Below are positions 6,416 to 51,127 of a stretch of 64,000 nt of DNA, one piece after another. The translations under genes were made by a program, and so were the position numbers. The stretch comes from Minisyncoccota bacterium. Its GTDB lineage: Bacteria; Patescibacteriota; Minisyncoccia; Phycocordibacterales; UBA9973. The stretch lies in assembly GCA_041661005.1 (NCBI GenBank), contig JBAZVG010000001.1:295544-359543 (forward strand), written 5' to 3'. Within the stretch, counting starts at the first letter, position 1. Every line of letters starts with the position of its first letter. The notes under the pieces are model-generated. The model saw only the letters and a list, made by a program, of their open reading frames with translations, had not been told where the DNA came from and made no database searches.

Positions 6416-7945
6416 TTATATCATAGGCTCAGCTTCCTGTGAAGCTTTTGTTTTTGGCCTTTCTTCCTTAAACACTTCTTCTGAAGCGTCGGGTGATCCG
6501 CTTTCAGCGGATTCAGCCTCTTTTTCATTTTCTTTCCCTTTAGCTTTTCCTTCAATTATCGCCTTTTCCTCAGCGCTCCTGATGATCGTAGCTTCTTCTT
6601 CGGCGATTAGTTTGGCCGCGTCGTCCTTTGGTATTGAATATTTTCTGCGAGACGCTTCGATAATTTCTTGTCGATACGACGGATGCGTCGGAGGAAGAAC
6701 TCGCAGGGTCTCAGCCGAAAATGGATCATAAGATTCTCCATCAATGGTCATTTTTATATAAAATTCCGCTACTGCCAAATTGATCATATCTTTGACGTCA
6801 AAAATTGGCGCAAATTCTGGTTTTAATTTAACTGCATCTTCACCACCGACTCTGAAACAGATTATGCTTCCTGTGTTTCCAAGGACTGCGTGCTGAACCT
6901 GTGGAAGAAGCTGTCCGATATACTGGTGCGCCATAGTTAGATTGAGCGCATATTTTCTAGCTTCAGATAAAATATTTTCAAATGTTTGAGTGACGATATT
7001 GTGGAACTCATCGATGTATAAATAAAAATCCTTACGATCTTTTTCTGGAATGCTTGCTCGCTCCATTCCCGCTTGTTTTATTTTTGTCAGGAACATTGAA
7101 CCGAAGAAAGAAGAATTTTCTTCTCCGATACGACCTTTGGAAAGGTTAATAAAAATTATTTTCTCCTGATTCATGAGTTCACTAATATCTATTTTGTTTT
7201 GTTTTTGTCCAAAGATATTTCGGAGCAACGGATCCGAAAGAAATTGCCCGAGCTTGTTCACTAGCGGGATGATAGCGTCGGTGTCAAATTTCTCCGACCA
7301 ATCGGCAAATTCGATAGCGAAGAATCTCTTCACCATGTCGTCTGTGATGTATTCCACCACTTTCTGCCTGTAATTTCTATCGGTCAGCATTGAGATCATC
7401 CCACGCATGGTGGCATGTGGATAGTCGAGAAGCGCCAAACACGTAAATCGAAAGACGTGTTCTAGGCGGGGCGTCCAGTTGGCGCCGAATTGTTTATGTA
7501 AAACTTCAATCAAGCCTTGAGTCAATTGAAATTTAAAAAGCGGGTCCACATTAGCAAGCGGATTAAACGACGCCGGAAAATCAATATCAGCCGGGTCGAT
7601 AATGCAGACATCCTCGATACGCTCTTTGGGAATATAATCCAGCATCGCATCGATCACATCACCGTGCGGGTCAATGAGACACAAGCCATGATTGTATGTT
7701 ACGTCTTGGCGAATGAAAAGTTCGAGTAATTTCGTCTTACCGACACCCGACTTTCCAACGATGTAAAGATGCCTTCGGCGATCGACGCGCTTGATGCCGA
7801 AAATAAATTTTTTTTCTTCAAGCGAAGCTACATAATTAGTGCGTCCAATGAAAGAAACCTCTTCGGGTTTCACTTTGCCAAAAACGGGCAACTCTGGCGG
7901 TGGCGGTCCGTATTTGATTATTTGCACTCGATTAGGCTTGGGCAT
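6416..7945 (-). CDS. HerA/FtsK/VirB4-superfamily P-loop ATPase (DUF87-like), paralog 1
   Basis: Walker A 'GKSGVGKT' followed by 'IDPHGD' (HerA-like DPHGE/D). Walker B 'FYLYIDEFHNIV'. 509 aa with an acidic/lysine-rich C-tail. Paralogous to 12963-15098. Confidence 0.6.
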   Translation of the reverse strand: MPKPNRVQIIKYGPPPPELPVFGKVKPEEVSFIGRTNYVASLEEKKFIFGIKRVDRRRHLYIVGKSGVGKTKLLELFIRQDVTYNHGLCLIDPHGDVIDAMLDYIPKERIEDVCIIDPADIDFPASFNPLANVDPLFKFQLTQGLIEVLHKQFGANWTPRLEHVFRFTCLALLDYPHATMRGMISMLTDRNYRQKVVEYITDDMVKRFFAIEFADWSEKFDTDAIIPLVNKLGQFLSDPLLRNIFGQKQNKIDISELMNQEKIIFINLSKGRIGEENSSFFGSMFLTKIKQAGMERASIPEKDRKDFYLYIDEFHNIVTQTFENILSEARKYALNLTMAHQYIGQLLPQVQHAVLGNTGSIICFRVGGEDAVKLKPEFAPIFDVKDMINLAVAEFYIKMTIDGESYDPFSAETLRVLPPTHPSYRQEIIEASRRKYSIPKDDAAKLIAEEEATIIRSAEEKAIIEGKAKGKENEKEAESAESGSPDASEEVFKEERPKTKASQEAEPMI

Positions 7946-7946
7946 A

Positions 7947-8237
7947 TTATTTATACTTTAACATGAATTTGTAAGAAAAAGGTTCAGCATATTTTTCTAA
8001 AATAATTCTTTCATATGGATTCAATTTATCGTAACCGAGAATAAAATTTTTAACGACGCTCCACTCTTCGCGTCCAGCCGGAATAATTTCCCTAAAATTC
8101 AGGATTGTATCAACAATGCCCAAAGCCCGGTTTTTTGCGTTATTTGCAGCCTCTATTTTTCCAGAATCATAAAAAGAAAAAAGTCTGCCTATTTCAGGAT
8201 ATATGTTTGCCATATAAAAAAGTGAATTTTTCTCCAT
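7947..8237 (-). CDS. Hypothetical protein (96 aa)
   Basis: ORF tightly packed between the ATPase and the upstream small gene, with no motif. Confidence 0.4.
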   Translation of the reverse strand: MEKNSLFYMANIYPEIGRLFSFYDSGKIEAANNAKNRALGIVDTILNFREIIPAGREEWSVVKNFILGYDKLNPYERIILEKYAEPFSYKFMLKYK

Positions 8238-8240
8238 AAA

Positions 8241-8597
8241 TTATTTCAAGTCAATAAATTTATAAATAATACTGGTGGCTTTCTTGATAATTTCATTGTT
8301 GTTTATATTCCTGGAACGATTGCCAAAATTTGGTTTTATATTAACCATTGAATCAAATTCCAAAACTCCTTCTGGATTTTCCTCAAAACGAACATTAAAA
8401 CCCCAAATATCTTCAAATTTTGAACCCGTGCTAGTTAATAGTTCAGAGTCCTCAATATGATAATCACCACCCAAAGCCACTCGACCTCCTTCGATATCCA
8501 CCGCCCCCTTTATCATCGTTCCATACCAAAATTCTGCTAACTTCTTAAGATCTTCTACGCTGATTTTATGATCTAAAATAATAATTTTCGTGTCCAT
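8241..8597 (-). CDS. Hypothetical protein (118 aa)
   Basis: ORF spaced 3 nt from the downstream gene, suggesting an operon. No motif recognised. Confidence 0.4.
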   Translation of the reverse strand: MDTKIIILDHKISVEDLKKLAEFWYGTMIKGAVDIEGGRVALGGDYHIEDSELLTSTGSKFEDIWGFNVRFEENPEGVLEFDSMVNIKPNFGNRSRNINNNEIIKKATSIIYKFIDLK

Positions 8598-8634
8598 ATA
8601 CTAGAAATATATTAGCACAATTTTGGTCTATTTT

Positions 8635-10386
8635 CTAATAAACCTCGGCTTGGTAGCATTTCTCGCAGTAGACAATCTCTGGTCGATCAGGAGCGTATGA
8701 AGTTTCGAATTCTATTTCACACTTTCCTGCCCCGTGTATATGATTTTTCTTATCGCACATACAGGATCTATGCCAAAGCTTAAGCGGATTTCTTTGCTTT
8801 TGTCTAGTGTAATGTCTGCAATTTGGACACATATGCGGCAGTGGTAGATTCATTCTTTTATAAAACGAGAGTTCATCCTTTATTATTTTGAATGCTTCTG
8901 TGCACTGTTCGTTGCATTTTCCTTTATGTTCACACTCTATAACCTTACCAATAACATCTTCACTCACTTCTCCAATATCATTTGGAATATCTTCTGTTTT
9001 AATATTTATTTTAAAAGTTCGATTTTCGCCTTCTTTCCATCTGTAACCTTGCTTTAGAGTTTCTGTTTTTGTTAATGGAAAATATTCTTGAGCTATAGTC
9101 TCGTTATAAGCAAACGGCGACAGTTCTGCTGGAAAAAATTCCCCGTACTTATAAATTTTTCCTTCTTTATCTACATATGGCATATCGTTCATATGTTTAA
9201 TAATTTTAGGAACTAATTCTGAATATTCTTCTTTCGTATATTGTTTATTCAATATGCAATACTGTTTCTGACGAAGACCAATACATCCAAAAACATTTCC
9301 ACAACCATGGGAAGCATAACTATAATAAACATCATTCCCTCCCCAAACAAATATGGTAAAAAACAATCTTGCTCCATCTGCACCCGTGTCAACACCTTCG
9401 TAAAGTTGGCTTGCATTTCCTCCGAAACCATAACCATCATAAGAATCTTCCAATTGGACTCCGCCATTTATTGCAAATTTAGTGTCTCTGATCCCTCCTT
9501 TTAGATCAAAACAAAATTTACAGTTTGAAGCATTTGCTAGATTATCTCCGGTGCAATTTTGAGCATTGTAGAAAGTAGCAAACTTCCTTATGCTTTCTCT
9601 TCTTAAATTAATAAATTTCTCCTTTATCGCATTGAATCCTTTATAGTCATGCAAATTCATTTTTTTTACTTCCTTATCATAATCTTCCTTGGAATATTGT
9701 TTATTAAAAATGCAATAAGATTTACTGCGAAGATTTACACATCCGATGCAATCTGTGCAACCTTTGCATTCATAAAGAAAATAGCAAGATACGCAGTTTT
9801 CACAGTTTTCACAAAAAACAGAACCATACATTTTTTCACACGCTGTTAAATCATAGCTTAATTCCGTATTTGAACACGCAAGAAGATCCATAGAACCTTT
9901 AGATCGAAATGTTTTTGCGCTGAACAAAATATCTTCAACTTCCCAACTTGCAAAAGTTAAGTAAGAACTACGTATTTCTCCACAATGATTGCAATAAAAA
10001 CTATTACTAATTCTGCTATTAAAAAGTGACGGAAGAGGAGCGCGCATCAACAATTCTTTCCATTGAATAAAAAATGGTTTTGAAAAATCGTAATTTTGTC
10101 CTGATTCAAGCGGATCCCATTTATCTGACCACCAAATCTCTCTTTCATAAACCTTGCACGGATTGTCAGCAGAAAATGGAGTAATTATATCTTGATCGCT
10201 GAAATCGCATTTTCGTTTATACAAAGCTCGCTCATTTCTGAAAATCATTCTCCTAACTGCCCTACACTCCGGGCAAAAAGTAGGTGGCGGGACTTTGATT
10301 TTTTCGTAAAAATTAAAATCCTCCGATTCTATCGTAAAGTCTTGTTTGCAATTTTGACATATTGTATTTTGTGATTTATACTCCAT
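8635..10386 (-). CDS. Large cysteine-rich protein (583 aa) with N- and C-terminal zinc ribbons, paralog 1
   Basis: N-terminus 'CQNCKQDFTIESEDFNFYEKIKVPPPTFCPECR'. Internal CxxC clusters ('CENCENCVSCYFLYECKGCTDCIGCVNLR', 'GCGNVFGCIGLRQKQYCILNKQYTKEEY'). A second ribbon 'CNEQC...CPNCRHY'. C-terminus '...YAPDRPEIVYCEKCYQAEVY'. Paralog of 11268-12959. Confidence 0.55.
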   Translation of the reverse strand: MEYKSQNTICQNCKQDFTIESEDFNFYEKIKVPPPTFCPECRAVRRMIFRNERALYKRKCDFSDQDIITPFSADNPCKVYEREIWWSDKWDPLESGQNYDFSKPFFIQWKELLMRAPLPSLFNSRISNSFYCNHCGEIRSSYLTFASWEVEDILFSAKTFRSKGSMDLLACSNTELSYDLTACEKMYGSVFCENCENCVSCYFLYECKGCTDCIGCVNLRSKSYCIFNKQYSKEDYDKEVKKMNLHDYKGFNAIKEKFINLRRESIRKFATFYNAQNCTGDNLANASNCKFCFDLKGGIRDTKFAINGGVQLEDSYDGYGFGGNASQLYEGVDTGADGARLFFTIFVWGGNDVYYSYASHGCGNVFGCIGLRQKQYCILNKQYTKEEYSELVPKIIKHMNDMPYVDKEGKIYKYGEFFPAELSPFAYNETIAQEYFPLTKTETLKQGYRWKEGENRTFKINIKTEDIPNDIGEVSEDVIGKVIECEHKGKCNEQCTEAFKIIKDELSFYKRMNLPLPHMCPNCRHYTRQKQRNPLKLWHRSCMCDKKNHIHGAGKCEIEFETSYAPDRPEIVYCEKCYQAEVY

Positions 10387-10491
10387 ATCTTTTTTGCAAC
10401 CTGCCCCGTAGGAAGCTCTGCTTTCCTTCGGGGTTCTGGCATTGTCGAGTTTCGCTTTTCATTTTTACCTTAAAAGTGTATCATAAAAGAC

Positions 10492-11202
10492 ATGAAATTA
10501 CATCGATTCATTGGAGATTTTGACCTATCTCAAAAAGAAGTAGAAATCACAAATCCTGAAAATATCAAACAAATAAAGGATGTTTTGCGTCTCAGAAAAG
10601 ATGAAAAAATTATTCTCTCTGACGGCAAGGGCATGAATGCGGAAGTGATCTTAAACTTGGTATCAAAAAATAAAATTACCGGCGTAGTTGACAAGGTAGA
10701 CAAATCTGTTGATGTTGAAAGTTATGGGAGGAAAAGAAAAGTAAACTTATATCTGGCAATCTTGAAAAAAGAAAATTTCGAGTTCGCGGTGCAAAAATCC
10801 GTCGAAGCTGGAGTCCACAGGATCATTCCAATAATCACGGAACGAACGATAAAGACCGGACTAAATTTCCCGCGCTTGGAAAAAATAATGATTGAAGCCA
10901 GTGAACAATCGGGCAGAAGCATTATATCCGTCTTGTCCCCCATTATGAATTTCAAAGACGCGCTTGCCGATGGGATAAACAATGAAGAAAAAGTAATTTT
11001 CCATTTAAAAAATAAATTATACGAACCGAATAAAAATGCCGAAAGTATCGGCATTTTCGTCGGGCCAGAAGGAGGATTTACAGAAAAAGAAATTTCTCTA
11101 GCAAAAGAAGCTGGTTATATTCCAATGTCTTTAGGATCCCTCACTCTGCGTGCCGAAACAGCCGCCATCATCGCGACTTACAGAACAGCCAAGGGCATCT
11201 AG
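10492..11202 (+). CDS. rsmE: 16S rRNA (uracil1498-N3)-methyltransferase RsmE (SPOUT)
   Basis: 'MKLHRF...' N-terminal PUA-like region and C-terminal SPOUT motifs ('GPEGGFTEKEI', 'SLGSLTLRAETAAIIA'). 236 aa. Confidence 0.75.
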   Translation: MKLHRFIGDFDLSQKEVEITNPENIKQIKDVLRLRKDEKIILSDGKGMNAEVILNLVSKNKITGVVDKVDKSVDVESYGRKRKVNLYLAILKKENFEFAVQKSVEAGVHRIIPIITERTIKTGLNFPRLEKIMIEASEQSGRSIISVLSPIMNFKDALADGINNEEKVIFHLKNKLYEPNKNAESIGIFVGPEGGFTEKEISLAKEAGYIPMSLGSLTLRAETAAIIATYRTAKGI

Positions 11203-11267
11203 AATAAAATTACACGATCGTATTATTTTATACTTTTACATATTTACGCCATGGATGATATATGTAT

Positions 11268-12959
11268 TCAGTAAACTTCCTGCTGGTAGCATTTTTCGCA
11301 ATACACTATCTCTGGACGGCCCGCTTCGTCGGAGCTTGAGCGAGGCGAGTCAGGGGCATAATTTGTCGTAATTTCCTTCTGACATTTGGCGCAATTACGA
11401 TTCCAGAATTTATATGGACCACGGCGAATGATGCGGTCTTGATGCCGGCAATAAAAACATTTGCGAGGTGTAGGAATATTCATTTTTTTATAAAACAATA
11501 GCTCTTGATTTATAATTTTATAATTTCTGTTACAATCTATGCATCTTAAAATTTCACTAGTGATTGAATCCTGCACATCTTTTATGTGGTCGGGAATATC
11601 TTCTGGTTTCATAGTTTCCTTCCCTTCTGTCTTTTGAATATCGTCTTCCCAGCGAAAACCTTGCGCGATAGCTTCTTCCTTAGTAAGAGGCATATTGTCC
11701 TGCGCAATTGTTTCGTTATAGGCAAATGGCGCAAGTTCGGGTGGAAAATAAAGTCCATACAAATTTTTCTCTTTTAATTCGGAAATAATTCTAGTCCTAA
11801 TCGCTTCATACTCCTCTTTAGTATATCTTTTATTTAAAATTACATATTTTCCATTTCTGACACTATCACAACCAAAGCAATATTCAGAAGAACGTAGGGC
11901 AAAAGAATAATCTACGTCGTGCGATCCGGTACTCCACCATGAACCAATGACATTACTGGAAGTTCCAACAGCAACGCATTCTAATAATAATTCACTTCTT
12001 CTGCCATGACCGATCAAATCATAACAATTCTTGGTGCGTTTGTTTGAAAAAAGAAATTTAGAGTCCTCACAAAAAGATATTTCGTATGAATTATGGCAAT
12101 TCTTTGATTCAAAAATATAATCTCCAGAAACATTTATATTCCTCAGATTGCTGTTTTCTTTTCTAGGAAAACGCATTGAAAACTTTTTAAATTGAGTGCG
12201 AAATTCTTCCATATTTTTGTAACTTCCCATAATTTCTGATATTCTTTTTTGATATTCGTCTCTAGATAATGGTTCATTGAAAAAATGATGTGATTTGTGA
12301 CGCAAATTAACGCAACCAAAGCAATTTTGGCAATCTGAACAATTCAGAAGGAAAGCGGAATCTATACAGTTATCCGCATTTTGCGCCCATATAACTCCAG
12401 AACTTGTATTAACATTTATTGCCTCATAAATCTTTTCGTCTTTGTTTGCATAATACGAATCGAACGCTTCGCGACATGAGATCATCCCTCGAGAATAAGC
12501 GCATTCTTCATTATTAGGACCTGAATTAAAAATAAAATAGCAGTTCTTGTTTCCTCCCGCAAAATTTGTATACTCGCTATTTATATTTGGACCGACATCT
12601 TCGGAAGCAAAAATGCCTGCCTTTGGAACATGAATCATTAATTCTTTCATCTGATCAAAAAAAGGCTTTTGAGGATCATAATCTTCCCCATAAGAAAATG
12701 GGTCCCACTTTTCAGAAAGCCAACAGTCTTTACAATAAACGATATAAGGAGATTTTGGACCATACATTGAGATAGTAGACTTTCCGCACATTCCACAGAC
12801 GCGATTGTAAAGATTTATTTCATTCCTAAAGAGAGCGCGCCACTTAAATCTGCATTCCGGACAATTCACGGGCACTGGCACTTTCATTTTCTCGTAAAAA
12901 GAAAGGTCATCTTTTTCTAAAATGAATTTTTGTTTACATTTTTTACAATCTTGCATCAT
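11268..12959 (-). CDS. Large cysteine-rich protein (563 aa) with N- and C-terminal zinc ribbons, paralog 2
   Basis: N-terminus 'CKKCKQKFILEKDDLSFYEKMKVPVPVNCPECR'. The ribbon repeats near the C-terminus ('CIDCNRNYKIINQELLFYKKMNIPTPRKCFYCR'). Ends '...RPEIVYCEKCYQQEVY'. Start is 4 nt downstream of the ATPase-2 stop. Confidence 0.55.
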   Translation of the reverse strand: MMQDCKKCKQKFILEKDDLSFYEKMKVPVPVNCPECRFKWRALFRNEINLYNRVCGMCGKSTISMYGPKSPYIVYCKDCWLSEKWDPFSYGEDYDPQKPFFDQMKELMIHVPKAGIFASEDVGPNINSEYTNFAGGNKNCYFIFNSGPNNEECAYSRGMISCREAFDSYYANKDEKIYEAINVNTSSGVIWAQNADNCIDSAFLLNCSDCQNCFGCVNLRHKSHHFFNEPLSRDEYQKRISEIMGSYKNMEEFRTQFKKFSMRFPRKENSNLRNINVSGDYIFESKNCHNSYEISFCEDSKFLFSNKRTKNCYDLIGHGRRSELLLECVAVGTSSNVIGSWWSTGSHDVDYSFALRSSEYCFGCDSVRNGKYVILNKRYTKEEYEAIRTRIISELKEKNLYGLYFPPELAPFAYNETIAQDNMPLTKEEAIAQGFRWEDDIQKTEGKETMKPEDIPDHIKDVQDSITSEILRCIDCNRNYKIINQELLFYKKMNIPTPRKCFYCRHQDRIIRRGPYKFWNRNCAKCQKEITTNYAPDSPRSSSDEAGRPEIVYCEKCYQQEVY

Positions 12960-12962
12960 AGT

Positions 12963-15098
12963 TTATTCCAAAATCTTTCTTAGAACATCTTCCGGCACTT
13001 CCTTGGGTTTTTTGGGAACAGGAGTTGAAACAGGAGCAGGTGTAGGAATTTCAACTTGAGGTTTGGGAACTGGTGCAGGTGTTTGGACAGGTATTTTTTC
13101 TAAAATAAGATTCTTTAAATTATTCATGTCTTCCGAACTAGCAGCGCGATCCCCGCCTTGCCTAGTCGAGGCAGGTTTGGAAGTTACAGATTCCTTCATT
13201 TTATTTTTTAGGGAATCAAGCGATACTGGTGTTTCGACTGGAGCTTGATCAGCCTTAGGCTTACTCACTTGAGGCTCTTTTACCACCGCTTTTAGCGGGG
13301 TCCCTCCATCGGCGGTGATTTTATTTAAAATATCTCTCAAAGCAGTATTTTCTCGAATTCCTGAGGACGGAACGTGAACAGGTTTTACATTTACAGACTT
13401 TGCTGGGCGGTGAGGCACAGACAGAACTCTTTTGATACTTCCAAATATTCCAGGCTTCCCTGCTGGCACAGAAGATTTATCCATGGACTTTTCTATCCTT
13501 TCAGGATATCTCTCCTTTTCCTCACCCTTCGCTCTGTCTTTCTGCTGAAACTCTATACCCAAATCAGCCAATGGCTTGTAAAACGTGGACTCATCATGCC
13601 TGATCTGGTTCTCTGAACCCTTTTCTACTTTTACTTCGCCAGATTTTATTTTCGCTATGCAATCTTTGCAATATACCGCCCTGCCTGAATCAGGCTTGAA
13701 GGGAACCGTCGTTTCTTTTTTACAAAGCGAACAAATAACCGGAAATTTTTCTATATTTCCAGTTCCGCCATCATGATCATTGCCAAGCGACATTCCACTC
13801 CAATCGTTGATTTCTCTCTCCACAACTTCTTTGGATCTGCAATACAACGCGCGTGAAGATTTGATCACTTCTTCCTCTATTTTTTTATCACCAGACTTCA
13901 CCATGGGTGGCAAAGTCTTGGCAGAAAATGGACGGGACGTCACTCCATCAATCATTAATTTCAAATAAACTTTATAGTTAGGCAAATTCACAATGTCCTG
14001 CGGTGTAAATTCTGGATCAAATTCTGATTCAAGAAATTCTGCATCGTCAGAACCAACTCTAAAGACTATCATCGTGCCGACGTTACCGAAAACGGCATCA
14101 CGCACAGCTGAACTCTTTTCTACCACCAGTTGAGCGGTGTATTGGTGTGCCACTGTCAAATTCAATCTGTATTTTCTAGCTTCAGACAAAATGCCGGCAA
14201 AAGCATCTGTGACGAAATTTTGAAATTCATCCACATACAAATAAAAATCTCGGCGATTCTCTTCGGGAATACGCACACGCTCCATGGCAGCCAGCTGGAT
14301 TTTGGTAATAATCATTCCTCCGAGTAGGCCAGAGTTGTCTTCGCCAATGCGTCCTTTGGAAACGTTCACCAAGAAAATCTTGCCCTCATTCATCATGTCG
14401 AAAATATTTATCGTGCTTTTAGACTGACCGACGACATTGCGGATGATGGAAGTGGAAAGAAACTGCCCGACTTTATTTTGGATCGGCGCAATCGCTTCAT
14501 TTCGGAATTTATCTTGCCAAATTTCATATTCATGCACCCAGAAAGCCTTGATGACGGGATCTTTTAAATTAGAAATTATTTTCTGACGGTAATCTTTATC
14601 TACCAGCAGTCGGGGAATTCCGAGAAGCGTCGTGCCGGGGGTGTCGAGAAGCGCCAAAATCGCGTTGTTTAAAATATATTCCATTCGAGCACTCCAAGCA
14701 TTCGCCCAAATTTTAGTAAAAATACCCATGAGTCCCGAAGCCACCAAATGCTTGTATTGCGGATCAATCAATTCCAAAACATTGAATCCGATATGATGAT
14801 CGGCATCAGCTGGATTAAAATAGACAACATCTTTGATACGCTCTGGCGGAATAGCCGACAGAACCGCCTCAACATTTTCTCCATGCGGGTCAACCATGCA
14901 AACTCCGTCGCCATTTTTGATGTTCTGAATAATCATATTGAACATCAAGACCGATTTACCGGTACCGGACTTTCCGAGAATATAAACATGCTGACGCCTG
15001 TCTTTGCGCTTGATGCCAAAAAGCTGATTCTTGTCACGATAAGTTGAAAGACCAAGATATGTAATTTCTTTATTTATTGGTATTTCTGGAAAATCCAT
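12963..15098 (-). CDS. HerA/FtsK/VirB4-superfamily P-loop ATPase, paralog 2, with C-terminal zinc ribbon and Pro/Lys-rich tail
   Basis: Walker A 'GKSGTGKS' + 'VDPHGE'. Walker B 'FYLYVDEFQNFV'. C-terminal 'CSLCKKETTVPFKPDSGRAVYCKDCIAKI' ribbon (~13640-13745), then a low-complexity P/K/V-rich tail. 711 aa. Confidence 0.6.
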   Translation of the reverse strand: MDFPEIPINKEITYLGLSTYRDKNQLFGIKRKDRRQHVYILGKSGTGKSVLMFNMIIQNIKNGDGVCMVDPHGENVEAVLSAIPPERIKDVVYFNPADADHHIGFNVLELIDPQYKHLVASGLMGIFTKIWANAWSARMEYILNNAILALLDTPGTTLLGIPRLLVDKDYRQKIISNLKDPVIKAFWVHEYEIWQDKFRNEAIAPIQNKVGQFLSTSIIRNVVGQSKSTINIFDMMNEGKIFLVNVSKGRIGEDNSGLLGGMIITKIQLAAMERVRIPEENRRDFYLYVDEFQNFVTDAFAGILSEARKYRLNLTVAHQYTAQLVVEKSSAVRDAVFGNVGTMIVFRVGSDDAEFLESEFDPEFTPQDIVNLPNYKVYLKLMIDGVTSRPFSAKTLPPMVKSGDKKIEEEVIKSSRALYCRSKEVVEREINDWSGMSLGNDHDGGTGNIEKFPVICSLCKKETTVPFKPDSGRAVYCKDCIAKIKSGEVKVEKGSENQIRHDESTFYKPLADLGIEFQQKDRAKGEEKERYPERIEKSMDKSSVPAGKPGIFGSIKRVLSVPHRPAKSVNVKPVHVPSSGIRENTALRDILNKITADGGTPLKAVVKEPQVSKPKADQAPVETPVSLDSLKNKMKESVTSKPASTRQGGDRAASSEDMNNLKNLILEKIPVQTPAPVPKPQVEIPTPAPVSTPVPKKPKEVPEDVLRKILE

Positions 15099-20305: not shown

Positions 20306-20444
20306 ACCTGCCCCGTAGTGAACTCTGCTCTACTACTGGATGAAGAAACAAAAAAGTTTCTATTTGAAACTTTTGAAAAATAAAATTGTAAATATCGGCG
20401 TTAAATGCTATATTTTTTGGAAGAAAGTACATTAAGAATAAATT

Positions 20445-20516
20445 GGCTCTATCGTCTAATAGTTAGGACACAAGCTTCTCAAGTTTGGAATCTGGGTGCG
20501 ATTCCCAGTAGAGTCA
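20445..20516 (+). tRNA. tRNA-Glu (anticodon CUC). T-loop reads TGCGATT, i.e. G at the usually invariant U55 position.
   Basis: Hand-folded cloverleaf. Acceptor GGCTCTA/TAGAGTC (one G-T wobble); D-stem GTCT/GGAC; anticodon stem CAAGC/GTTTG with loop TTCTCAA; T-stem CTGGG/CCCAG; discriminator A. No CCA encoded. Confidence 0.7.
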
Positions 20517-20669
20517 CAAAGCACTTACATGAAAAAGAGCACACTGCTGTGCTCTTTTTCATGTAAGTGCTTTGTGAAGACGGAAGTATGTTTTTCCAGT
20601 AAGAAAAACAACTGAGTCCGGGGCTGGAAAATTTTCTTTTGACGAAAAGAAAATTATTGTGGCTCACAT
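20513..20669 (+). repeat. tRNA-Glu 3'-flanking repeat element, copy A (perfect 29-bp-stem hairpin + ~95 bp conserved tail)
   Basis: Begins inside the tRNA 3' end at 'GTCACAAAGCAC'. Hairpin CACAAAGCACTTACATGAAAAAGAGCACA-CTGC-TGTGCTCTTTTTCATGTAAGTGCTTTGTG. The following ~60 bp are near-identical to the reverse complement of 52081-52207. Confidence 0.75.
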
Positions 20670-20839
20670 AAACTTCGAATGCGAAGCATCCCTAAAACAA
20701 GCTAGATCCCAAATTGTTTTCCGACATCAACACATCATTGGCGATTTGGAACAGAAAAAGATATACTTCACAATGGACAACAGTACCACTCCGTAAGACT
20801 TGAGCGAAAGCCAAGCAGGAATCAACGAAAGGGATAGTT

Positions 20840-21397
20840 ATGGAACTGAAACCAGCACATAGAAAAGCATTCCGAGAGAACATCAGTACGGTCTGTACCA
20901 ATAGACTGTACAGGGAGGCACTGGAAAGTCTGAAAGTTGCCCCGCTTCCCACGATGTCTGTGTGGATCACTCGACAGATCTACAGAAAATGGAGTAGCAG
21001 TTGGGTCGACGAGAACAAGAGAACCTTGTGGCAGGTTCTCACTGGGGTCAGGAAGGAACCCAAAAAGTTCTACATGTCCCACCCGAAAGAGTGGGAACTG
21101 CCATACAGAGGTGGTTTTGGGAGAAAGGATCGGAATATGGTGGTAAGACTGCAGGTAAAGTGGAAAGTTGACGGAGAAGGCAAGGATGACTTCCTCTATC
21201 AGCACATTGAAGAAATTCCGATGTTTGGTGATGAGAAAAAGTTTCACTTCTTTACCACTGATATTGAAATCTTTCCACTTACGCCTCAACAAGCGGCATT
21301 CGTCGGAGCGATGCGCCTTACCTCATTTACTCCAAGTATATTCTGGGGAACTCGTGAAGACGTGATGGAGATTCAAAACAAGTTCCCCATCGTTTAG
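20840..21397 (+). CDS. Hypothetical protein (185 aa) in a GC-rich (~48%) island
   Basis: Clean ORF with composition clearly different from the AT-rich background. No recognisable motif. Confidence 0.4.
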   Translation: MELKPAHRKAFRENISTVCTNRLYREALESLKVAPLPTMSVWITRQIYRKWSSSWVDENKRTLWQVLTGVRKEPKKFYMSHPKEWELPYRGGFGRKDRNMVVRLQVKWKVDGEGKDDFLYQHIEEIPMFGDEKKFHFFTTDIEIFPLTPQQAAFVGAMRLTSFTPSIFWGTREDVMEIQNKFPIV

Positions 21398-21495
21398 GCA
21401 AGTTCGCAGTATCAAGCCGTGAGGAAGTCGCGATCCGTGACACTCGCGGCTTTCTCATTTAAATATAAGAAAATTCTTTATCTGATCGAATATCA

Positions 21496-21524
21496 GATTC
21501 CAATTCATGGTACAATGTGTCACA
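21496..21524 (+). promoter_or_regulatory. Promoter-like recurrent motif, copy F (diverged): GATTCCAATTCATGGTACAATGTGTCACAG
   Basis: Matches the GTTCCAATyTCGyAyAATTAGggTCACA family. Contains an extended -10 'TGgTACAAT'. Sits 6 nt upstream of the ATG at 21530. Confidence 0.4.
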
Positions 21525-21529
21525 GATTT

Positions 21530-22108
21530 ATGAAATCTTTTTTTAGAAAAATTCGTCACAAAACAATTACTCGAAAGTTAGTTATTCCGAAAAATGCTTC
21601 TATTCTCGACACTTCTTGCCAAGATGGTGGATTTTTATCCATACTCATGAAGAACAATGAAGGTAAGAATATTAATATTTTTGGTATTGATATAAGTTCT
21701 ACAGATGTGGAGGCAGCTAAAAAAATAATTCCAACTGGAATTTTTAAAATTACAGATAATAGTTCAATCCCATTCGGGGATAAGACATTCAATACTGTTG
21801 TAAGCTCTCTGACTCTCCACCACATGTCTCAACCCGTAAAATCATTTAATGAAATGAAGCGAGTACTAAAAGATGACGGCTCTATTTATTTAATCGATAT
21901 AATTTCAGAAAATACTGTTTTTAATTTTATCTTAAAACACATAAAGTGTCCTGAACCATATCATTTTGAGAAATTTTATTCCTTAAAAGATCTTAATGAA
22001 TTGTTGACAAAAACAAAATTAAAAATTTCCCAGAAAGTAAAAATACTAACTTTTCCGACCCCCAGTGTTGTTACACCAGTTTTATTAGTGGAATTAAAAA
22101 AGGATTGA
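21530..22108 (+). CDS. Class I SAM-dependent methyltransferase (Methyltransf_11-like)
   Basis: Motif I 'ILDTSCQDGGFLSIL', post-I acidic 'IFGIDIS', motif II/III region. The longest ORF starts at 21419, but a promoter-like motif lies inside that extension, so the 'MKSFFRK' start was preferred. Confidence 0.55.
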   Translation: MKSFFRKIRHKTITRKLVIPKNASILDTSCQDGGFLSILMKNNEGKNINIFGIDISSTDVEAAKKIIPTGIFKITDNSSIPFGDKTFNTVVSSLTLHHMSQPVKSFNEMKRVLKDDGSIYLIDIISENTVFNFILKHIKCPEPYHFEKFYSLKDLNELLTKTKLKISQKVKILTFPTPSVVTPVLLVELKKD

Positions 22109-22134
22109 AAAACTCTTTATCTGACTGAATAGCC

Positions 22135-22163
22135 GGTTCTGATCTCGCACAATTAGGGTCACA
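22135..22163 (+). promoter_or_regulatory. Promoter-like recurrent motif, copy A: GGTTCTGATCTCGCACAATTAGGGTCACA
   Basis: -10-like CACAAT; the ATG of the 22170 gene is 7 nt after the motif. Confidence 0.4.
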
Positions 22164-22169
22164 CGAAAA

Positions 22170-22736
22170 ATGCCAACCATAGATACTTTAGAAAAAATAA
22201 TTAATACATTAGACCCAGTTAATCCTTATGAGGATGATAGAATGTTGATCTTGTATTGCAGTTTATTTATTGAAGATTATGTAGAAAAAATATATTCACA
22301 AGTAAAAGGAAGCGTAAAATACAAGGATTGCAAATACTGCGGAAAAACCTCAAAACCAGGTTTTTTGAAAAAAGTAAAAGAACTAGCCGATGAAGGCTAT
22401 ATAAATAAAGAAGTTGGACATGATTTGATTATTGAAGAAATATGGAAACACCGAGGACCGGCAGTTCATGAAATAAATCTAGATGTTAGTAAAATCATTG
22501 AAACTGTTGAAAAATACACTAGAGATTCAAAAAGAGATGACCCTCATGGGTTATTAGAGAAATTGTTTAAAAATATAAGTTGGAGAAAAAAACTTCAAAT
22601 GCCTTCAATTGCGATAGTTTTTACTCTTAACCAAACACTGAGTAATATTTTAGGAACTTCCACAAATAAGAAATTAGAATTTGAGATTGATCCGAATTGT
22701 ACAAATATTCGCTCTAAAATTATTAGTTTGGATTAA
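22170..22736 (+). CDS. Hypothetical protein (188 aa)
   Basis: ORF flanked by motif copies A and B. Confidence 0.45.
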   Translation: MPTIDTLEKIINTLDPVNPYEDDRMLILYCSLFIEDYVEKIYSQVKGSVKYKDCKYCGKTSKPGFLKKVKELADEGYINKEVGHDLIIEEIWKHRGPAVHEINLDVSKIIETVEKYTRDSKRDDPHGLLEKLFKNISWRKKLQMPSIAIVFTLNQTLSNILGTSTNKKLEFEIDPNCTNIRSKIISLD

Positions 22737-22766
22737 AGGTAAATAGTTTTATTTGACTGAAAATCA

Positions 22767-22795
22767 AGTTCCAATTTCGTACAATTAGGGTCACA
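22767..22795 (+). promoter_or_regulatory. Promoter-like recurrent motif, copy B: AGTTCCAATTTCGTACAATTAGGGTCACA
   Basis: TTGACT at 22753 and TACAAT inside the motif. Oriented antisense to the following minus-strand gene. Confidence 0.4.
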
Positions 22796-22805
22796 AAAAT
22801 TAAAT

Positions 22806-22910: not shown

Positions 22911-23270
22911 TCATACGACAGTTGCATTTAGAATGTTTCCATCTTCTTTCAATGCAGTGACGGTAAGTCGAGCTCCGTCAAGTTCAAGCATCAAGGCGAA
23001 AGATCTTTCACTATTTTCTTCCACCTCAATATTCTCAACGTCGTACCCTAGCTGTCGGTAATACCCCGTGGTGAGCTCCTTTATGACATCCATAGGGGTT
23101 TCTTCTAAAAGACCTAGTCGAATGTGTTCAAAGTTTCCTGGATCAACATGATCGGCGAGTGTATTTCCGTCCGACATGTCGATTGCAGCCAAAGAAATCA
23201 TGTCTGCAACATCCAGCTCAGAACAGGCCAATTCCTGAACTAGAAACATCTTTAAGGTTAAATCTTGCAT
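22911..23270 (-). CDS. Hypothetical acidic protein (119 aa), GC-richer
   Basis: ORF between motif copies B and C. Confidence 0.4.
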   Translation of the reverse strand: MQDLTLKMFLVQELACSELDVADMISLAAIDMSDGNTLADHVDPGNFEHIRLGLLEETPMDVIKELTTGYYRQLGYDVENIEVEENSERSFALMLELDGARLTVTALKEDGNILNATVV

Positions 23271-23437
23271 ATTTTTGAAGACTAAGGGTTTATTTCAAAA
23301 GGATACTGCTAGGCATCCAGAACTGTTTAATTTAAAATATATATTATTTAGGTTATTGTCAAGTACGCCTAATTCTTGGCCTCGAGTATTAATTCCAAAA
23401 AATGAAGCATGGAAACCCTTTATATAATTCAGGATTA

Positions 23438-23465
23438 GGTTCCAATCTCGCATAATTAGTTCACA
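23438..23465 (+). promoter_or_regulatory. Promoter-like recurrent motif, copy C: GGTTCCAATCTCGCATAATTAGTTCACA
   Basis: -35-like TTCAGG, 17-bp spacer, -10 CATAAT. Abuts the stop of the 23471-24142 (-) gene. Confidence 0.4.
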
Positions 23466-23470: not shown

Positions 23471-24142
23471 TTATCTTAATTTTCCACCAATCTCAGAAGA
23501 AGGACTCTCATTTTTCTTGCCAAGATATTTAGTTTCATACCAAGCTTTTAATTCGGGTATCTCTTTAATTTGTCTTATGACTGAATCTCGATAACTTCCA
23601 GTTTCTCCAACTTCTTTATCAAGCAATTCCTGCATTAATGGCTGTTCGGCACTGATTGAAATTTTTTCAATCGGAATGTCATCAGTAAATATTACTTCAG
23701 GTAAAACAAATGGGTATCGCTCCGGATGCCGCAAGTATTCTGCAATAGGAACCTTGGAACCAATGTATTTTCCTTCTGCGATTTTCCTTTCATTATAAAT
23801 TTCTTTTCCGCCACCTTCAGAACCGATTTTATAAAGAAACTTTTCTATTTCTCCTCTATCAACAACAAAAACATTTTTATCACTTTCGTCTACTTGTATT
23901 TCAAGCAACATTCTTCCAATGTCTCTTGTGAGGTGAAACCATATATCAGGGAATTGAGTATTGTGTGTCCAATTTTTAGGCACCGGTTCCAAAAGAGCGA
24001 AAACAGCCCCAGTATCCAAAGCATCTTCATGAACTTGACCAACTCTACGAATTGCTCCCAACCCCGACTTATCACGAGATTTCCAAGAGCCCTTTTTAAT
24101 AAGAGCCCAGTTGTCTAATGAAGTATAGTGATAAACTTTCAT
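23471..24142 (-). CDS. Hypothetical protein (223 aa)
   Basis: ORF between motif copies C and D. Confidence 0.45.
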   Translation of the reverse strand: MKVYHYTSLDNWALIKKGSWKSRDKSGLGAIRRVGQVHEDALDTGAVFALLEPVPKNWTHNTQFPDIWFHLTRDIGRMLLEIQVDESDKNVFVVDRGEIEKFLYKIGSEGGGKEIYNERKIAEGKYIGSKVPIAEYLRHPERYPFVLPEVIFTDDIPIEKISISAEQPLMQELLDKEVGETGSYRDSVIRQIKEIPELKAWYETKYLGKKNESPSSEIGGKLR

Positions 24143-24200
24143 AATTCAATATTACAACTTTAATACAAAATTTCAAAACCCTTTATTCTACTAAAAATCT

Positions 24201-24228
24201 GTTTCCAATCTCGTATAATTAGATCACA
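24201..24228 (+). promoter_or_regulatory. Promoter-like recurrent motif, copy D: GTTTCCAATCTCGTATAATTAGATCACA
   Basis: Consensus -10 TATAAT. Lies 46 nt upstream of the 24274 ATG. Confidence 0.45.
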
Positions 24229-24273
24229 ATTCAGAAACTTGGCTTAAAAAATAATTAAAGCTATACTCTTACC

Positions 24274-29436: not shown

Positions 29437-29679
29437 TGTGGATAACTTTTTGGACTTTGATTGTCGAAAGTTTTACAATATGGAGGTTGGTGATGGTTTC
29501 CTTCAGTTGGTTGTTTGCCTGCTGGGTGCCTCTCCGCTTCCGTGTGAGTGGGGAGGCACCCAAATTTCAATCTTCCGCATGGAAGATATCTGGCGCCTAA
29601 AAACGCCAAAAGATGTCCTCGAGAATCTGATTCCCGGGGCATTTTCATTTTTAGGAGACAATCTCTATTCTAGATTCTT
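29437..29679 (+). ncRNA. Structured element copy 1 (~243 nt). Conserved 5' (DnaA box TGTGGATAA + TTGGAC-N17-TACAAT) and 3' ends; variable central hairpins.
   Basis: The 5' 52 nt and 3' ~55 nt are near-identical to 31164-31394. Central hairpins GGGTGCCTCTCC...GGGGAGGCACCC, TCTTCCGCATGGAAGA and TGGCGCC..GGCGCCA occupy the same positions as different-sequence hairpins in copy 2. Strand unassigned. Confidence 0.4.
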
Positions 29680-29718
29680 AGTTTTCTGCACGCTTAAGGA
29701 CGTTTATGAAATCGTGTC

Positions 29719-31163: not shown

Positions 31164-31394
31164 TGTGGATAACTTTTGGACTTTGGTTGTCGAAAGTTTT
31201 ACAATATGGAGGTTCCCTTCCGGGTAGTGGTTGTGTTCCCCGAGGAGGCCCCCTCGCACCACCGAGCGCACGGTGCGAGGGGGCGAAGTAGTAGCTCTTT
31301 TGTGTCTATACACATCGGTGTCGGAAGACACCAAAAAGCGGTCCCAGAATCTTTGATTCCGGGGCCTTTGCATTTTTAGGAGACAATCTCTATT
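31164..31394 (+). ncRNA. Structured element copy 2 (~231 nt)
   Basis: Same conserved ends as copy 1. Central hairpins CCCCCTCGCACC...GGTGCGAGGGGG and GTGTCT..AGACAC replace those of copy 1 at equivalent positions (structure conserved, sequence not). Confidence 0.4.
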
Positions 31395-32862
31395 CTAGAT
31401 TCTTTGGTTTCATAGTCGGGAAAAATATAATTTCTTTTATATTTTGCGTATCAGTCAAGAACATCACGAGACGGTCAATCCCTATGCCGACTCCCCCCGC
31501 CGGAGGCATGCCATATTCCATCGCTTCTAGAAAATCTTCGTCTTTCCTCTGAGCATCTGTCTCGCCACTTTTTTTATTTTCTTCCTGTTCTTCAAAACGC
31601 GCCCGTTGATCGAGCGGATCATTTAATTCAGAAAACGCTTTGACTAACTCCACACCGCCGACGACTAGCTGAAAGGCTTCAACAAATTTAGGATTTTTTA
31701 TTTTTCGTTTTGCTAAAGGCAAATATTCCGCTGGATAATCGATAATGAAAGTTGGATTAATCAATTTCGGACGGCAAAGCTTTTTATAAATTCCATCTAA
31801 AAGTTTGGGCACAGAATCTTCTTTGTTTACAACTATGCCACATTTTTCCGCCTGAATTTTTAAATCTTCTTTAGAAATAGATTCCGCGTCAATACCGCCA
31901 TATTCTTTCAATAAATCAAAGTAGGAAAATACGGAGAATTTTTTGGAAAAATCTATATTTTGATTATTATAAGTTATTGAATCGCTTTGCTTTATTTTTT
32001 TAACTAAAATCTTAAAAATTTTCTCCACAAAAGCCATCTGTTTGTCTGCATCACTGAAACTTTCATAAAATTCAATCATGGTGAATTCAGGATTGTGGGT
32101 CATATCAATTCCCTCATTTCTAAAGTCTCGAGCAATTTCATAAATTTTCGGAAAACCAGCGACAAGCATTCGTTTTAAATAAAGTTCATCGGAAATTCTC
32201 AGATACATTTTCATATTGAGCGCCTTATGTTCTGTGACAAATGGTTCTGCCGTAGCCCCGCCATACAGAGGCTGAAGAGCTGGAGTCTCAACTTCCAAAT
32301 ATCCGTTTTCATCAAAGATTCTTCGCAATTCAGTGATGATTTTAGAACGAGTGAAAAATCTTTCTTTGACTTCGGCAGACATCAGAGCATCTAAATATCT
32401 TTTTCGAAATCTTTCTTCCACGTCCACTAGGCCATGCCACTTTTCCGGCAATGGTCGGAGACTTTTGGAAAGCATCCGCCAATCTTTCGCTTCCAACGTC
32501 TTCTCTCCCCTTTTGGTGGTAAAAAAAGCGCCTTGGATTTCTATAAAATCTCCTATGTCCACCACTTCGCTAAAGAAATTAAATTTCTCATCGGCCAAGA
32601 CATCTCTTTTGAGTAAACCCTGAAAAGTCCCAGTGCCATCATCTAACGTTATGAAGACAATAGCCCCCTGCCCGCGGATCGACATTACTCTTCCGGCGAT
32701 CCATTTAGTCTTTTTTTCTTTTGATAAATTATCAAAATCCTCCGTCGCGTCTTTTAGAGTTAGTTCTCTTTCTGAATTTGCCGGATACGGGTTCACACCC
32801 TTTTCCTCTAAGAGTTTAAGTTTTTTTAACCTAGCATCTCTAATTTCATCAATTGAAGACAT
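31390..32862 (-). CDS. lysS: Lysyl-tRNA synthetase (class II)
   Basis: N-terminal OB anticodon-binding domain. Class II motifs 1-3 ('FRNEG', 'GGVGIGIDRLVM'). Confidence 0.9.
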   Translation of the reverse strand: MSSIDEIRDARLKKLKLLEEKGVNPYPANSERELTLKDATEDFDNLSKEKKTKWIAGRVMSIRGQGAIVFITLDDGTGTFQGLLKRDVLADEKFNFFSEVVDIGDFIEIQGAFFTTKRGEKTLEAKDWRMLSKSLRPLPEKWHGLVDVEERFRKRYLDALMSAEVKERFFTRSKIITELRRIFDENGYLEVETPALQPLYGGATAEPFVTEHKALNMKMYLRISDELYLKRMLVAGFPKIYEIARDFRNEGIDMTHNPEFTMIEFYESFSDADKQMAFVEKIFKILVKKIKQSDSITYNNQNIDFSKKFSVFSYFDLLKEYGGIDAESISKEDLKIQAEKCGIVVNKEDSVPKLLDGIYKKLCRPKLINPTFIIDYPAEYLPLAKRKIKNPKFVEAFQLVVGGVELVKAFSELNDPLDQRARFEEQEENKKSGETDAQRKDEDFLEAMEYGMPPAGGVGIGIDRLVMFLTDTQNIKEIIFFPTMKPKNLE

Positions 32863-47135: not shown

Positions 47136-47313
47136 ACTTCTTTATCTCTGCTACATCAAGTCTTCTTTCCCCAGATTCAATTTTTGAAATATAGGATTGT
47201 GGCTTACCGAGCTTATCAGCCACGGCTTGCTGTGTAAGTCCGGCTTCAATACGCCCTTTTTTCAAGCGTTCAATGATTGATTTATATTCTTTTGTATAAA
47301 CTGACTTATTCAT
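47092..47313 (-). CDS. XRE-family HTH protein, probable R-M controller (C protein)
   Basis: 'GLTQQAVADKLGKPQSYISKIESGERRLDVAEIKKFA' is a classic Cro/C1 HTH. 73 aa. Its stop overlaps the REase start. Confidence 0.7.
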   Translation of the reverse strand: MNKSVYTKEYKSIIERLKKGRIEAGLTQQAVADKLGKPQSYISKIESGERRLDVAEIKKFAVIYKKDVSFFIK

Positions 47314-48225: not shown

Positions 48226-48270
48226 ATTTGTTGGAGTTTCCGTGTGTCGTATAAAAAGTATTTCATATCT

Positions 48271-48298: not shown

Positions 48299-48332
48299 TT
48301 GTATTCAATCAGACAAAAATTTTCAAATTGTT

Positions 48333-48602: not shown

Positions 48603-48611
48603 TACTTGTGT

Positions 48612-51116: not shown

Positions 51117-51127
51117 ATTATTTTTTA

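Follow-up and report, generated by a model that had tools for sequence, protein, structure and literature searches.

Two tRNA-Glu genes lie in the 64,000-nucleotide stretch of Patescibacteria DNA analysed here (contig JBAZVG010000001.1, positions 295,544 to 359,543; the window). Both are followed by the same non-coding sequence, element E, of which a long hairpin begins within the last bases of the tRNA gene itself. This raises the question of what kind of element it is and how it came to occupy both sites. E appears to represent a new family of structured elements, apparently undescribed, and this family is confined to tRNA 3' ends and cassette junctions in Patescibacteria. With middling confidence, we read E as an integrative module that is miniature, non-autonomous and non-coding and that occupies the junction nearest the tRNA in cassette arrays lacking an integrase. 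The gene content of the window is typical of the candidate phyla radiation (CPR), and the closest homologues of its MurF protein (70-76% identity) carry the names Candidatus Nomurabacteria or Paceibacterota.

The tRNA genes were called by ARAGORN and Rfam, and repeats were found by comparing the window against itself. E measures about 175 nt and lies directly 3' of both tRNA-Glu genes, in two inverted copies about 31.7 kb apart (copy A, 20518-20690; copy B, 52202-52030). Self-comparison gave two inverted-repeat blocks, one of 124 nt with 79% identity that comprises the tRNA and the 5' arm of the hairpin (20437-20560 / 52160-52283), and one of 104 nt with 92% identity (20566-20669 / 52055-52158). 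The proposal of a single shared element in inverted orientation, made in a first-pass annotation of this DNA, was thereby confirmed, and the second block shows that the similarity is not confined to the tRNA 3' ends. Weaker similarity runs on to a GCGAAGC mini-hairpin, and the unit is therefore about 175 nt long. The resemblance of the copies is not due to chance, since even shorter motifs of the arrays had approximately zero expected matches in shuffled sequence.

Each copy consists of a long hairpin whose 5' arm starts from the last tRNA bases, a body of about 95 nt and the mini-hairpin (Table 1). The 5' arm of copy A opens at TCA, the final bases of the tRNA. Its pairing is perfect, as annotated at first, over a length that measured 30 bp instead of the 29 bp given there. 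The outer stem is formed by the core TCACAAAG and an inverted copy of it, CTTTGTGA, and the inner part (20532-20559) is composed of an A-run, a 7-bp stem GAGCACA/TGTGCTC, the loop CTGC and a T-run. The same stem with compensating changes and a 4-nt bulge had been described for copy B, and this was found: ACATG/CATGT of copy A is replaced by ACTAG/CTAG with four bases unpaired, and the hairpin is kept. The approximately 60 nt following the long hairpin are nearly identical, as claimed, with a single difference between the copies. A smaller second hairpin is changed in both arms with its pairing kept (TTTTCTTTT-GACG-AAAAGAAAA in copy A vs TTTGCGAGT-GACG-ACGAGCAAA in copy B). In the body of copy A, helix P2 is formed by 20621-20626 with 20660-20665 and encloses a variable hairpin, P3 (20632-20653).

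The composition of the inner hairpin also bears on the suggestion that E might serve as a tRNA terminator or processing module, which stood as regards a terminator, for the inner hairpin. After both tRNA-Glu genes the GAGCACA-CTGC-TGTGCTC stem is followed by TTTTTC, and a pattern scan for terminators returned the site 20524-20567 on both strands and 52155-52194 on one strand. The inner hairpin looks like a bidirectional intrinsic terminator, termination itself being predicted. The element is better conserved than its surroundings: E is 97.5% identical to the copy at the orthologous locus L028, while the adjoining PGPGW-MurF DNA is 85.8% identical, suggesting purifying selection or recent spread. 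(Loci outside the window are labelled L001-L047; the sequence of L017 is identical to those of L009 and L016.)

Both copies of E stand at the head of gene cassettes, which are bounded by ..GGGTCAC(A) of the tRNA on one side and ..GGGTCAC(A) of a repeat, R, on the other. R is a repeat of about 55 nt at cassette ends (consensus AAAACCCTTTATTTGATTGAAAATCAGGTTCCAATCTCGTATAATTAGGGTCACA), and its 3' end, GGGTCACA, is the same as the ends of tRNA-Glu genes. The window holds six copies, five in the array 3' of copy A (array A, + strand) and one in array B (- strand). The five copies in array A all have the same orientation and a spacing of 632-763 nt, with one open reading frame (ORF) per interval. 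R is collinear with the T-arm of tRNA-Glu(UUC), AATCAG-GTTCCAATCTC vs AATCAGAGTTCGATTCTC, with 15 identities in 18 positions, a score that was reached by one of 500 shuffles, and it is also collinear with the tRNA-Glu 3' end (TAGGGTCACA). It has an extra insert containing TATAAT, and it does not represent a host tRNA copy. The R consensus contains TTGAAA-17 nt-TATAAT directed into the next cassette, a motif like a sigma-70 promoter that a pattern scan flagged in two copies. Alignment of 24 R copies showed strong sequence conservation and no internal palindrome. A dif/Xer-type site or an attC palindrome was ruled out for R by eye, its arms not being inverted repeats.

The two copies of E had also been considered as inverted repeats able to invert the 20.5-52.2 kb interval, or as att sites of one large integrated element. 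An inverted repeat of about 190 bp with 79-92% identity, its arms about 31.6 kb apart, makes RecA-dependent inversion physically possible; nothing indicating it was found. The order tRNA-Glu(CUC)/PGPGW/MurF/PBP/MraW/MraZ/LysS/GreA/FtsA/FtsZ/TrxB is the same as in L037, L040 and L042, and mraZ-mraW-PBP-murF, lysS, greA and ftsA-ftsZ have the order and orientation relative to tRNA-Glu(CUC) seen in relatives that lack E. A single element would be flanked by att sites in direct orientation, and each copy finds a local explanation in the array that it heads. We therefore regard inversion or a single large element as extremely improbable. Of the att-like role, what survives is that each copy lies at an att-like junction heading its own array; the copies, inverted and not direct, are not the two ends of one 31.7-kb element.

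The distribution of R was examined with its 20-nt core as query in scans over 185,579 species genomes and a metagenome collection. Full-length R occurred in eight genome-scan matches, from four Nomurabacteria, one Paceibacterota, two Saccharibacteria and one contig binned as Burkholderiales, and in about 14 of 20 metagenome matches, the remainder being core-only chance matches. Saccharibacteria and Nomurabacteria share 20 consecutive positions of R, three of them restricted to C or T. Wherever the fetched DNA includes the tRNA, R is located about 0.5-1.3 kb downstream of tRNA-Glu (CUC or UUC) in the same orientation; the distance in L029 is about 2.5 kb. Core-only matches in L001, L007, L011, L013, L015, L020, L022, L027 and L032 were rejected as chance, as was a viral match in L012 (same contig as L023), which is inside a coding region and lacks the rest of R.

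Relatives of E were found in the loci by nhmmer and a covariance model. Outside the window, E is present in further Paceibacteria (L028, L021, L010, L017 with two tandem units, L031, L003 and L029), and every strong match lies within about 70 nt after the end of tRNA-Glu or of R in the same orientation. Two subfamilies can be distinguished, one with the window copies, L028 and L021 and the other with L010, L017, L031 and L029. From 5' to 3' the anatomy is a core GT^CACAAA, a spacer hairpin, an anti-core TTTGTGA that is an inverted copy of the core, the body, and a 3' part made up of ..TTGTG(G/A)C(Y)CACAT, about 10-15 nt and the GCGAAGC mini-hairpin, the stem of which covaries (ATGC/GCAT vs ACGC/GCGT). 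The spacer hairpin of the window copies, L021, L003 and L031 has an A-run, a 7-bp stem, a loop CTGC or CTAC and a T-run, and its stems covary, which makes it terminator-like; that of L010, L017 and L042 is not terminator-like and the T-run is absent. A minimal form follows tRNA-Glu(CUC) in L042-47, where a short core/anti-core hairpin leads directly to CACATAAAT..GCGAAGTAT without a body. The body is thus placed exactly between TTTGTGA(C) and CACAT.

Copies also occur at tRNA-Ser(CGA). The 3' side of this gene bears an E unit in L010 (101 nt) and L029 (177 nt), flanked in each by a perfect 20-nt direct repeat of the 3' end of that genome's own tRNA (CAAGTCCTGTACCCTCCGCA in L010; CGAATCCCTTCTCCTCCGCA in L029), and the body ends with ..ACTTGTGAC immediately ahead of the repeat. 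At tRNA-Ser the anti-core inverts the sequence of the local T-loop (L010, ACTTGAA; L029, ATTCGAA). The anti-core complements its target and changes with it, in three target variants (TTTGTGA/TCACAAA, ACTTGAA/TTCAAGT and ATTCGAA/TTCGAAT). The tRNA-Ser copies are the signature of site-specific tRNA-gene integration by an element of 100-180 nt that bears an attachment region alone.

In the reading that we favour, E would in essence be an attachment site without cargo. It would have inserted at GT^CACA, within the final bases of tRNA-Glu, by the same site-specific recombination that builds the arrays, and the recombining enzyme would be encoded elsewhere. The hairpin would start inside the tRNA because E carries an inverted copy of the crossover core, which pairs with the target's own core once integrated. 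The inner hairpin probably terminates or insulates transcription from tRNA-Glu and from the R promoter ahead of the cassettes, and the folded body is probably recognised by the recombination machinery, as RNA or as tRNA-sense single-stranded DNA.

An ordinary, vertically inherited tRNA-Glu 3' trailer would account for part of these data. E would then combine a long terminator, or a processing hairpin of the RNase III type, with a trailer-derived small RNA; gene conversion would have carried it from one tRNA-Glu locus to the other, and it would not be mobile. RNAs from tRNA 3' external transcribed spacers (3'ETS), such as 3'ETS-leuZ of E. coli, lie directly after tRNA genes. E resembles these and terminators in its position right after the tRNA, in the A-run, GC stem and T-run, and in a stable tRNA-sense trailer. 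It differs in its 30-bp stem that reaches into the tRNA, in the conserved fold of about 110 nt that comes next and in its occurrence after R. The inner hairpin that is terminator-like on both strands, the short hairpin with GCGAAGC module right after tRNA-Glu(CUC) in L042-47, the retention of E at the orthologous L028 locus and a tRNA-sense-specific fold with G-U pairs, as expected of RNA, all agree with a trailer. However, E also stands after R repeats that have no tRNA promoter anywhere near (L017, L021, L003 and L031), is absent after tRNA-Glu in L002, L004, L006, L030, L037 and L040, and has 20-nt target repeats at tRNA-Ser. In L003 its 5' and 3' parts are about 350 nt apart, interrupted by an insert that carries a small reverse ORF. 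A vertical trailer is for these reasons unlikely.

Searches for known relatives of E gave none. In Rfam searches of the window and eight related loci, in gathering and E-value modes, tRNAs passed and the other matches were sub-threshold generic microRNA-precursor hairpins. No match was obtained by blastn against INPHARED phages and PLSDB plasmids, and scanning IMG/VR for exact motifs of both E subfamilies found none. The published literature, searched for E sequence strings and for CPR tRNA-Glu cassette systems, held nothing relevant beyond tycheposons as an analogue; the tandem interspersed guide RNA (TIGR) arrays met in this search are unrelated.

The E body fold is supported by covariation. 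RNAalifold on nine sequences predicted P1 and P2, with compensatory change in 14 of the 18 pairs. For P1 alone 89.7% of the cells were paired and 11 of 13 pairs were compensated, a result that none of 500 shuffles equalled, with slid controls at 29-58%. For the whole body, a model-fitted alignment of 11 matches gave 92.2% paired cells and compensation in 15 of 18 pairs (slid controls 32-49%); in the same alignment 98% of the P2 cells were paired, 11 G-U cells included. A three-way junction of P0, P1 and P2, the last of which encloses the variable P3, was obtained in seven of eight single-sequence folds, and in all eight the tRNA-sense strand was more stable than its complement. The G-U pairs and the strand stability identify the folded entity as the tRNA-sense strand, as RNA or single-stranded DNA, and the G-U-rich P2 helix points rather to an RNA than to a DNA role. 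A hammerhead or other small ribozyme was ruled out for the body, which has no core motifs and no Rfam match.

A strand-specific fold raises the possibility that E acts as folded single-stranded DNA in recombination or replication, comparable to integron attC or CTX attP, with core and anti-core forming the duplex site and GCGAAGC serving as a priming or nuclease-resistant signal for single-strand cassettes. In CTX phage, the attP(+) site is a forked hairpin, and its single-strand integration is expected to leave a hairpin arm that starts in the target. E has in common with it two inverted core copies separated by a spacer, which is a resemblance only, and no Xer/dif relationship was seen in R or E. 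A hairpin starting inside the target would be predicted for single-strand integration of any such folded site, and the spacer of the core/anti-core hairpin varies from 1 to about 50 nt. The window also encodes two DNA-translocation ATPases that resemble VirD4/TraG. Mini-hairpins of the GCGNAGC type have an extraordinary stability as DNA and are met repeatedly where priming takes place on single strands, namely at the phage G4 origin, ssiA of RSF1010 and N4 early promoters (PMC13037366). By analogy, this stability may be taken as a lead towards a single-stranded DNA role of E. On the other hand, neither an integrase nor a HUH enzyme was found, R itself has no palindrome, and three of the six P2 pairs in the window subfamily are G-T, a weak helix if formed by DNA. 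Since the core is also occupied by cassettes that have no E, their insertion does not require the hairpin. These points make a single-stranded DNA signal quite unlikely.

The changing anti-core could also be read as the guide of a trans-acting, bridge-like RNA encoded by E, pairing with the target and directing a recombinase to tRNA ends. One 7-nt segment ahead of the body indeed complements the local target and co-varies with it, and the body is a conserved multi-helix fold of about 100 nt; a second guide pair as in bridge (seek) RNAs was not identified. The DNA-level inverted repeat explains the complementarity equally well, and only three target variants are known. Most copies have the terminator-like hairpin upstream, no partner protein is adjacent at any locus, and Rfam and the literature gave no match. 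IS110/IS1111 recombinase genes were absent beside E in the window and within 10 kb of the arrays in L037-L047, L010, L017, L021 and L028 being covered by their cassette ORFs only. The 185-aa protein of cassette 1 was ruled out as a partner of E, as its homologues, which lack E, R and tRNA-Glu, still have a promoter, a leader and a terminator of their own. A guide RNA is thus very unlikely.

Several observations weigh against E as an integrative module. Since no recombinase was identified, we infer mobility from anatomy and distribution only. The flanking direct repeat at tRNA-Glu is limited to CACA and A-rich bases, and the unit shared with L028 extends past this repeat to the mini-hairpin, leaving the right boundary ambiguous. 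E may be a composite of a short trailer hairpin and the 3' module, with the body inserted at TTTGTGA^C, and homologous recombination between the tRNA, E and R flanks might exchange cassettes without a dedicated enzyme. Covariation of a single-strand fold is unexpected for a classical double-stranded attP arm. As for the two forms of single strand, the terminator directly upstream speaks against high expression of the body as RNA, and the G-T pairs of P2 speak against a DNA fold. Finally, the fold rests on only about eight independent sequences, and the 11-match alignment, being fitted to the model, leans towards it.

To examine whether the arrays encode their own recombinase, about 80 window ORFs (every ORF of 140 aa or longer, apart from two that overlap others in an alternate frame) were scanned with Pfam, as were the cassette ORFs of other loci, and PADLOC was run on the cassette ORFs. 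The scans gave no integrase, resolvase or transposase among the window ORFs, within 10 kb of the arrays in L037-L047 or among the other cassette ORFs scanned. Looking up a PaaX-like neighbour protein by exact sequence returned no record.

The cassettes themselves show signs of exchange. L028 is the orthologous tRNA-Glu(CUC)-MurF locus (MurF protein 90% identical) and contains E, a different gene, R, an OmdA cassette and PGPGW-MurF. The OmdA cassette is without E in L028 and has a second type of head module, E', in the window, where it lies in the other array. A thioredoxin/permease cassette is found directly after the tRNA in L006, without E, and after R and E in L003; a HAD cassette follows R in L026, without E, and tRNA and E' in L021. 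The same cassettes thus occur with and without E ahead of them. The tRNA-Glu(CUC)-MurF locus has no array in L037 and L042-47 and a divergent R type in L040. Across the loci the cargo includes methyltransferase, OmdA, DUF4238, HAD and SIR2-like genes and many of no known family. L003 carries a Gabija-like gene pair, assigned by reading translations and not by a family scan. E' shares only its 3' part (TTATTGTGGCTCACGT..GCGAAG) with E, and its tract TGACCCTAA equals the R end read in reverse complement. Homologues of E' are present in L021 (directly after tRNA-Glu), L025 and L031, and E' had no match in Rfam. In the window tRNA-Ser and tRNA-Glu(UUC) are on one strand with cassettes in between, as in L017.

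These arrays resemble integrons in having, in array A, tandem mostly one-gene cassettes, a repeat in one orientation and one fixed anchor. Cassette content differs between close relatives and one cassette occurs in different arrays. The E hairpin, two inverted core copies around a variable spacer, is reminiscent of attC. In contrast to integrons, no intI gene was found in the window or near the L037-L047 arrays, and the anchor is the tRNA-Glu 3' end instead of attI. R differs from attC in that it lacks R''(RYYYAAC)/R'(GTTRRRY) inverted cores and a palindrome and is conserved in sequence. Miniature inverted-repeat transposable elements (MITEs), streptococcal cis-mobilizable elements (CIMEs) and the palindrome-associated transposable elements (PATEs) of IS200/IS605 are non-autonomous miniature elements presumed to be mobilised in trans. 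Like these, E is short, non-coding, structured, present in multiple copies and bounded by target-derived repeats. It differs in lacking transposase-type terminal inverted repeats, and no TnpA or integrase is known for it. Insertion of E after GTCAC(A) and its left-end hairpin would fit a PATE; the 20-nt repeats at tRNA-Ser do not, and they fit site-specific recombination and not transposition. TnpA (Y1 HUH) was not found in the window.

An analogue in the literature is formed by the tycheposons of Prochlorococcus, in which islands beside a full tRNA grow by successive integrations that push older elements outward and tRNA-like partial repeats lie between cargo modules (Hackl et al., bioRxiv 10.1101/2020.12.28.424599). 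The arrays resemble these islands in the streamlined genome, the tRNA anchor and the tRNA-like repeats between cargo. What defines tycheposons, however, is that the element encodes its own site-specific integrase together with hallmark replication genes (bioRxiv 10.1101/2020.12.28.424599), neither of which was found in the Pfam scans of the window. Moreover, the units described here are 0.2-1.3 kb long, R is distinct from the host tRNA end and E has no counterpart in tycheposons.

Taken further, these comparisons allow a wider and distinctly doubtful proposal, that CPR/Patescibacteria possess an undescribed integron-like platform. The tRNA-Glu 3' end would dock the cassettes and R would be the cassette site. 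The target-matching segment of E or E' would re-program insertion (tRNA-Glu vs tRNA-Ser) for a recombinase encoded elsewhere, as an RNA or single-stranded DNA structure, in contrast to a classical double-stranded attP. In the tiny genomes of CPR bacteria few mobile elements can be recognised, and little is understood of the ways in which these bacteria gain defence and accessory genes. Here, a single 64-kb window holds two tRNA-Glu arrays, which differ from those of a relative with a 90% identical MurF protein. R recurs with tRNA-Glu in Nomurabacteria, in other Paceibacterota and in Saccharibacteria, and this points to gene exchange by a phylum-wide mechanism. E is a well-defined handle on this mechanism, being short, structured and more conserved than neighbouring genes. 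Identification of a recombinase or an RNA-guided step would establish a new kind of site-specific gene-capture system and make gene flow among uncultured symbionts testable.

Table 1. Coordinates of tRNA genes, E and E' elements, R repeats and cassette genes in the window.
Feature	Position	Strand	Description
tRNA-Glu(CUC)	20445-20517	+	ARAGORN, Rfam; last bases ..GAGTCA are the start of the core GTCACA and of the 5' arm of the hairpin
E copy A, long hairpin	20514-20577	+	30-bp perfect stem, arms 20514-20543/20548-20577, 4-nt loop CTGC
E copy A, body	20571-20669	+	P1 stem-loop ~20579-20619, CCGGGG junction, P2, P3; 3' end ATTATTGTGGCTCACAT
E copy A, mini-hairpin	20679-20689	+	ATGC-GAA-GCAT (GCGAAGC); right-hand limit of the unit shared with orthologous locus L028
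Cassette 1 gene	20840-21397	+	product of 185 aa without Pfam family; promoter, leader and terminator of its own
R repeat 1	21469-21526	+	divergent copy
Cassette 2	21530-22108	+	S-adenosylmethionine-dependent methyltransferase
R repeat 2	22107-22163	+	
Cassette 3	22170-22736	+	188-aa protein, no Pfam family
R repeat 3	22740-22797	+	consensus-like; holds CTGAAA-17 nt-TACAAT
Cassette 4	22911-23270	-	119-aa protein, opposite strand to array
R repeat 4	23411-23464	+	
Cassette 5	23471-24142	-	223-aa protein, opposite strand to array
R repeat 5	24174-24229	+	distal end of array A; conserved PGPGW-MurF genes next
R repeat 6	48268-48325	-	sole R in array B; holds TTGAAT-17 nt-TATAAT
OmdA/YdeI-like cassette	48333-48602	-	same cassette in the tRNA-Glu(CUC) array of relative L028
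E' element	48605-48840	-	second type of non-coding head module, ~230 nt; 5' start GATGACCCTAAGC
Array B genes after E	48909-51950	-	seven ORFs: small membrane proteins, one DUF4238; no R in between
S hairpin	52007-52028, repeated at 48611-48632 and 48178-48199	-	GAGCAAGGGTAGTCCTTGCTCA (22 nt); array B
E copy B, body and mini-hairpin	52031-52153	-	mini-hairpin ACGC-GAA-GTGT; matched by the covariance model with 124.6 bits
E copy B, long hairpin	52147-52206	-	inner terminator-like stem as in copy A; compensating outer-stem changes, 4-nt bulge
tRNA-Glu(UUC)	52203-52275	-	ARAGORN, Rfam

Some further observations concern the arrays and their relatives. The S hairpin of array B is also found with one mismatch in the Obg gene region of L037 (18079-18100). 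The 5' leader of the 185-aa gene (CCACTCCGTAAGACTTGAGCGAAAGCCAAGCAGGAA; window ~20790-20830) is kept in L033 (~5950-5995) and L034 (~50-95), where the flanks are not, and this conserved leader may be cis-regulatory. In L005 a GC-rich non-coding stretch of about 240 nt (5680-5920, - strand) ends with GATATAATTAGCTCACA, like the R end, at the start of an R-ended cassette; no tRNA and no Rfam match were found in it, and it may be another docking RNA gene. L029 has an insert of about 125 nt (1140-1300, - strand) just upstream of tRNA-Ser, within a 21-nt direct repeat of the tRNA 5' end (ATTGGAGGAGTGGCTGAGTGG), with a hairpin with loop CTGC at its start and AATGCGAAGCAT at its end. Inside array B, a comparatively GC-rich 111-codon ORF (47516-47851, + strand) has an in-frame TAA at codon 37 and is probably a pseudogene of foreign origin.

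Other parts of the window are variable or of unusual composition. The 10-kb accessory island between tRNA-Ser and tRNA-Glu(UUC) encodes an oligonucleotide cyclase (43588-44466, - strand; PADLOC 1.7e-93) of the type found in cyclic oligonucleotide-based antiphage signalling systems (CBASS). A restriction-modification module at 44527-47313 includes an unusual 621-aa fusion of a LexA DNA-binding domain and S24 peptidase to an N6/N4 DNA methyltransferase, adjoining an MvaI/BcnI-family endonuclease and an XRE-type controller. Between mraZ and lysS, a direct repeat of about 240 bp with 92-98% identity (29448-29686 and 31174-31411, 1725 bp apart) encloses two unknown ORFs (153 and 156 aa) and contains the DnaA-box-like TGTGGATAAC. 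Since the same intergenic spot differs between L042 and L043, it counts as a second variable site. At 6416-15098 on the - strand, the genes of the two VirD4/TraG-like coupling ATPases (509 and 711 aa) alternate with large ORFs without Pfam families (583 and 563 aa), and this region may constitute a DNA-translocation cluster. Within the gene of a 902-aa surface protein with fn3, Flg_new_2 and PG-binding domains, tandem repeats of 126-173 nt that have diverged were observed at 60394-61800.

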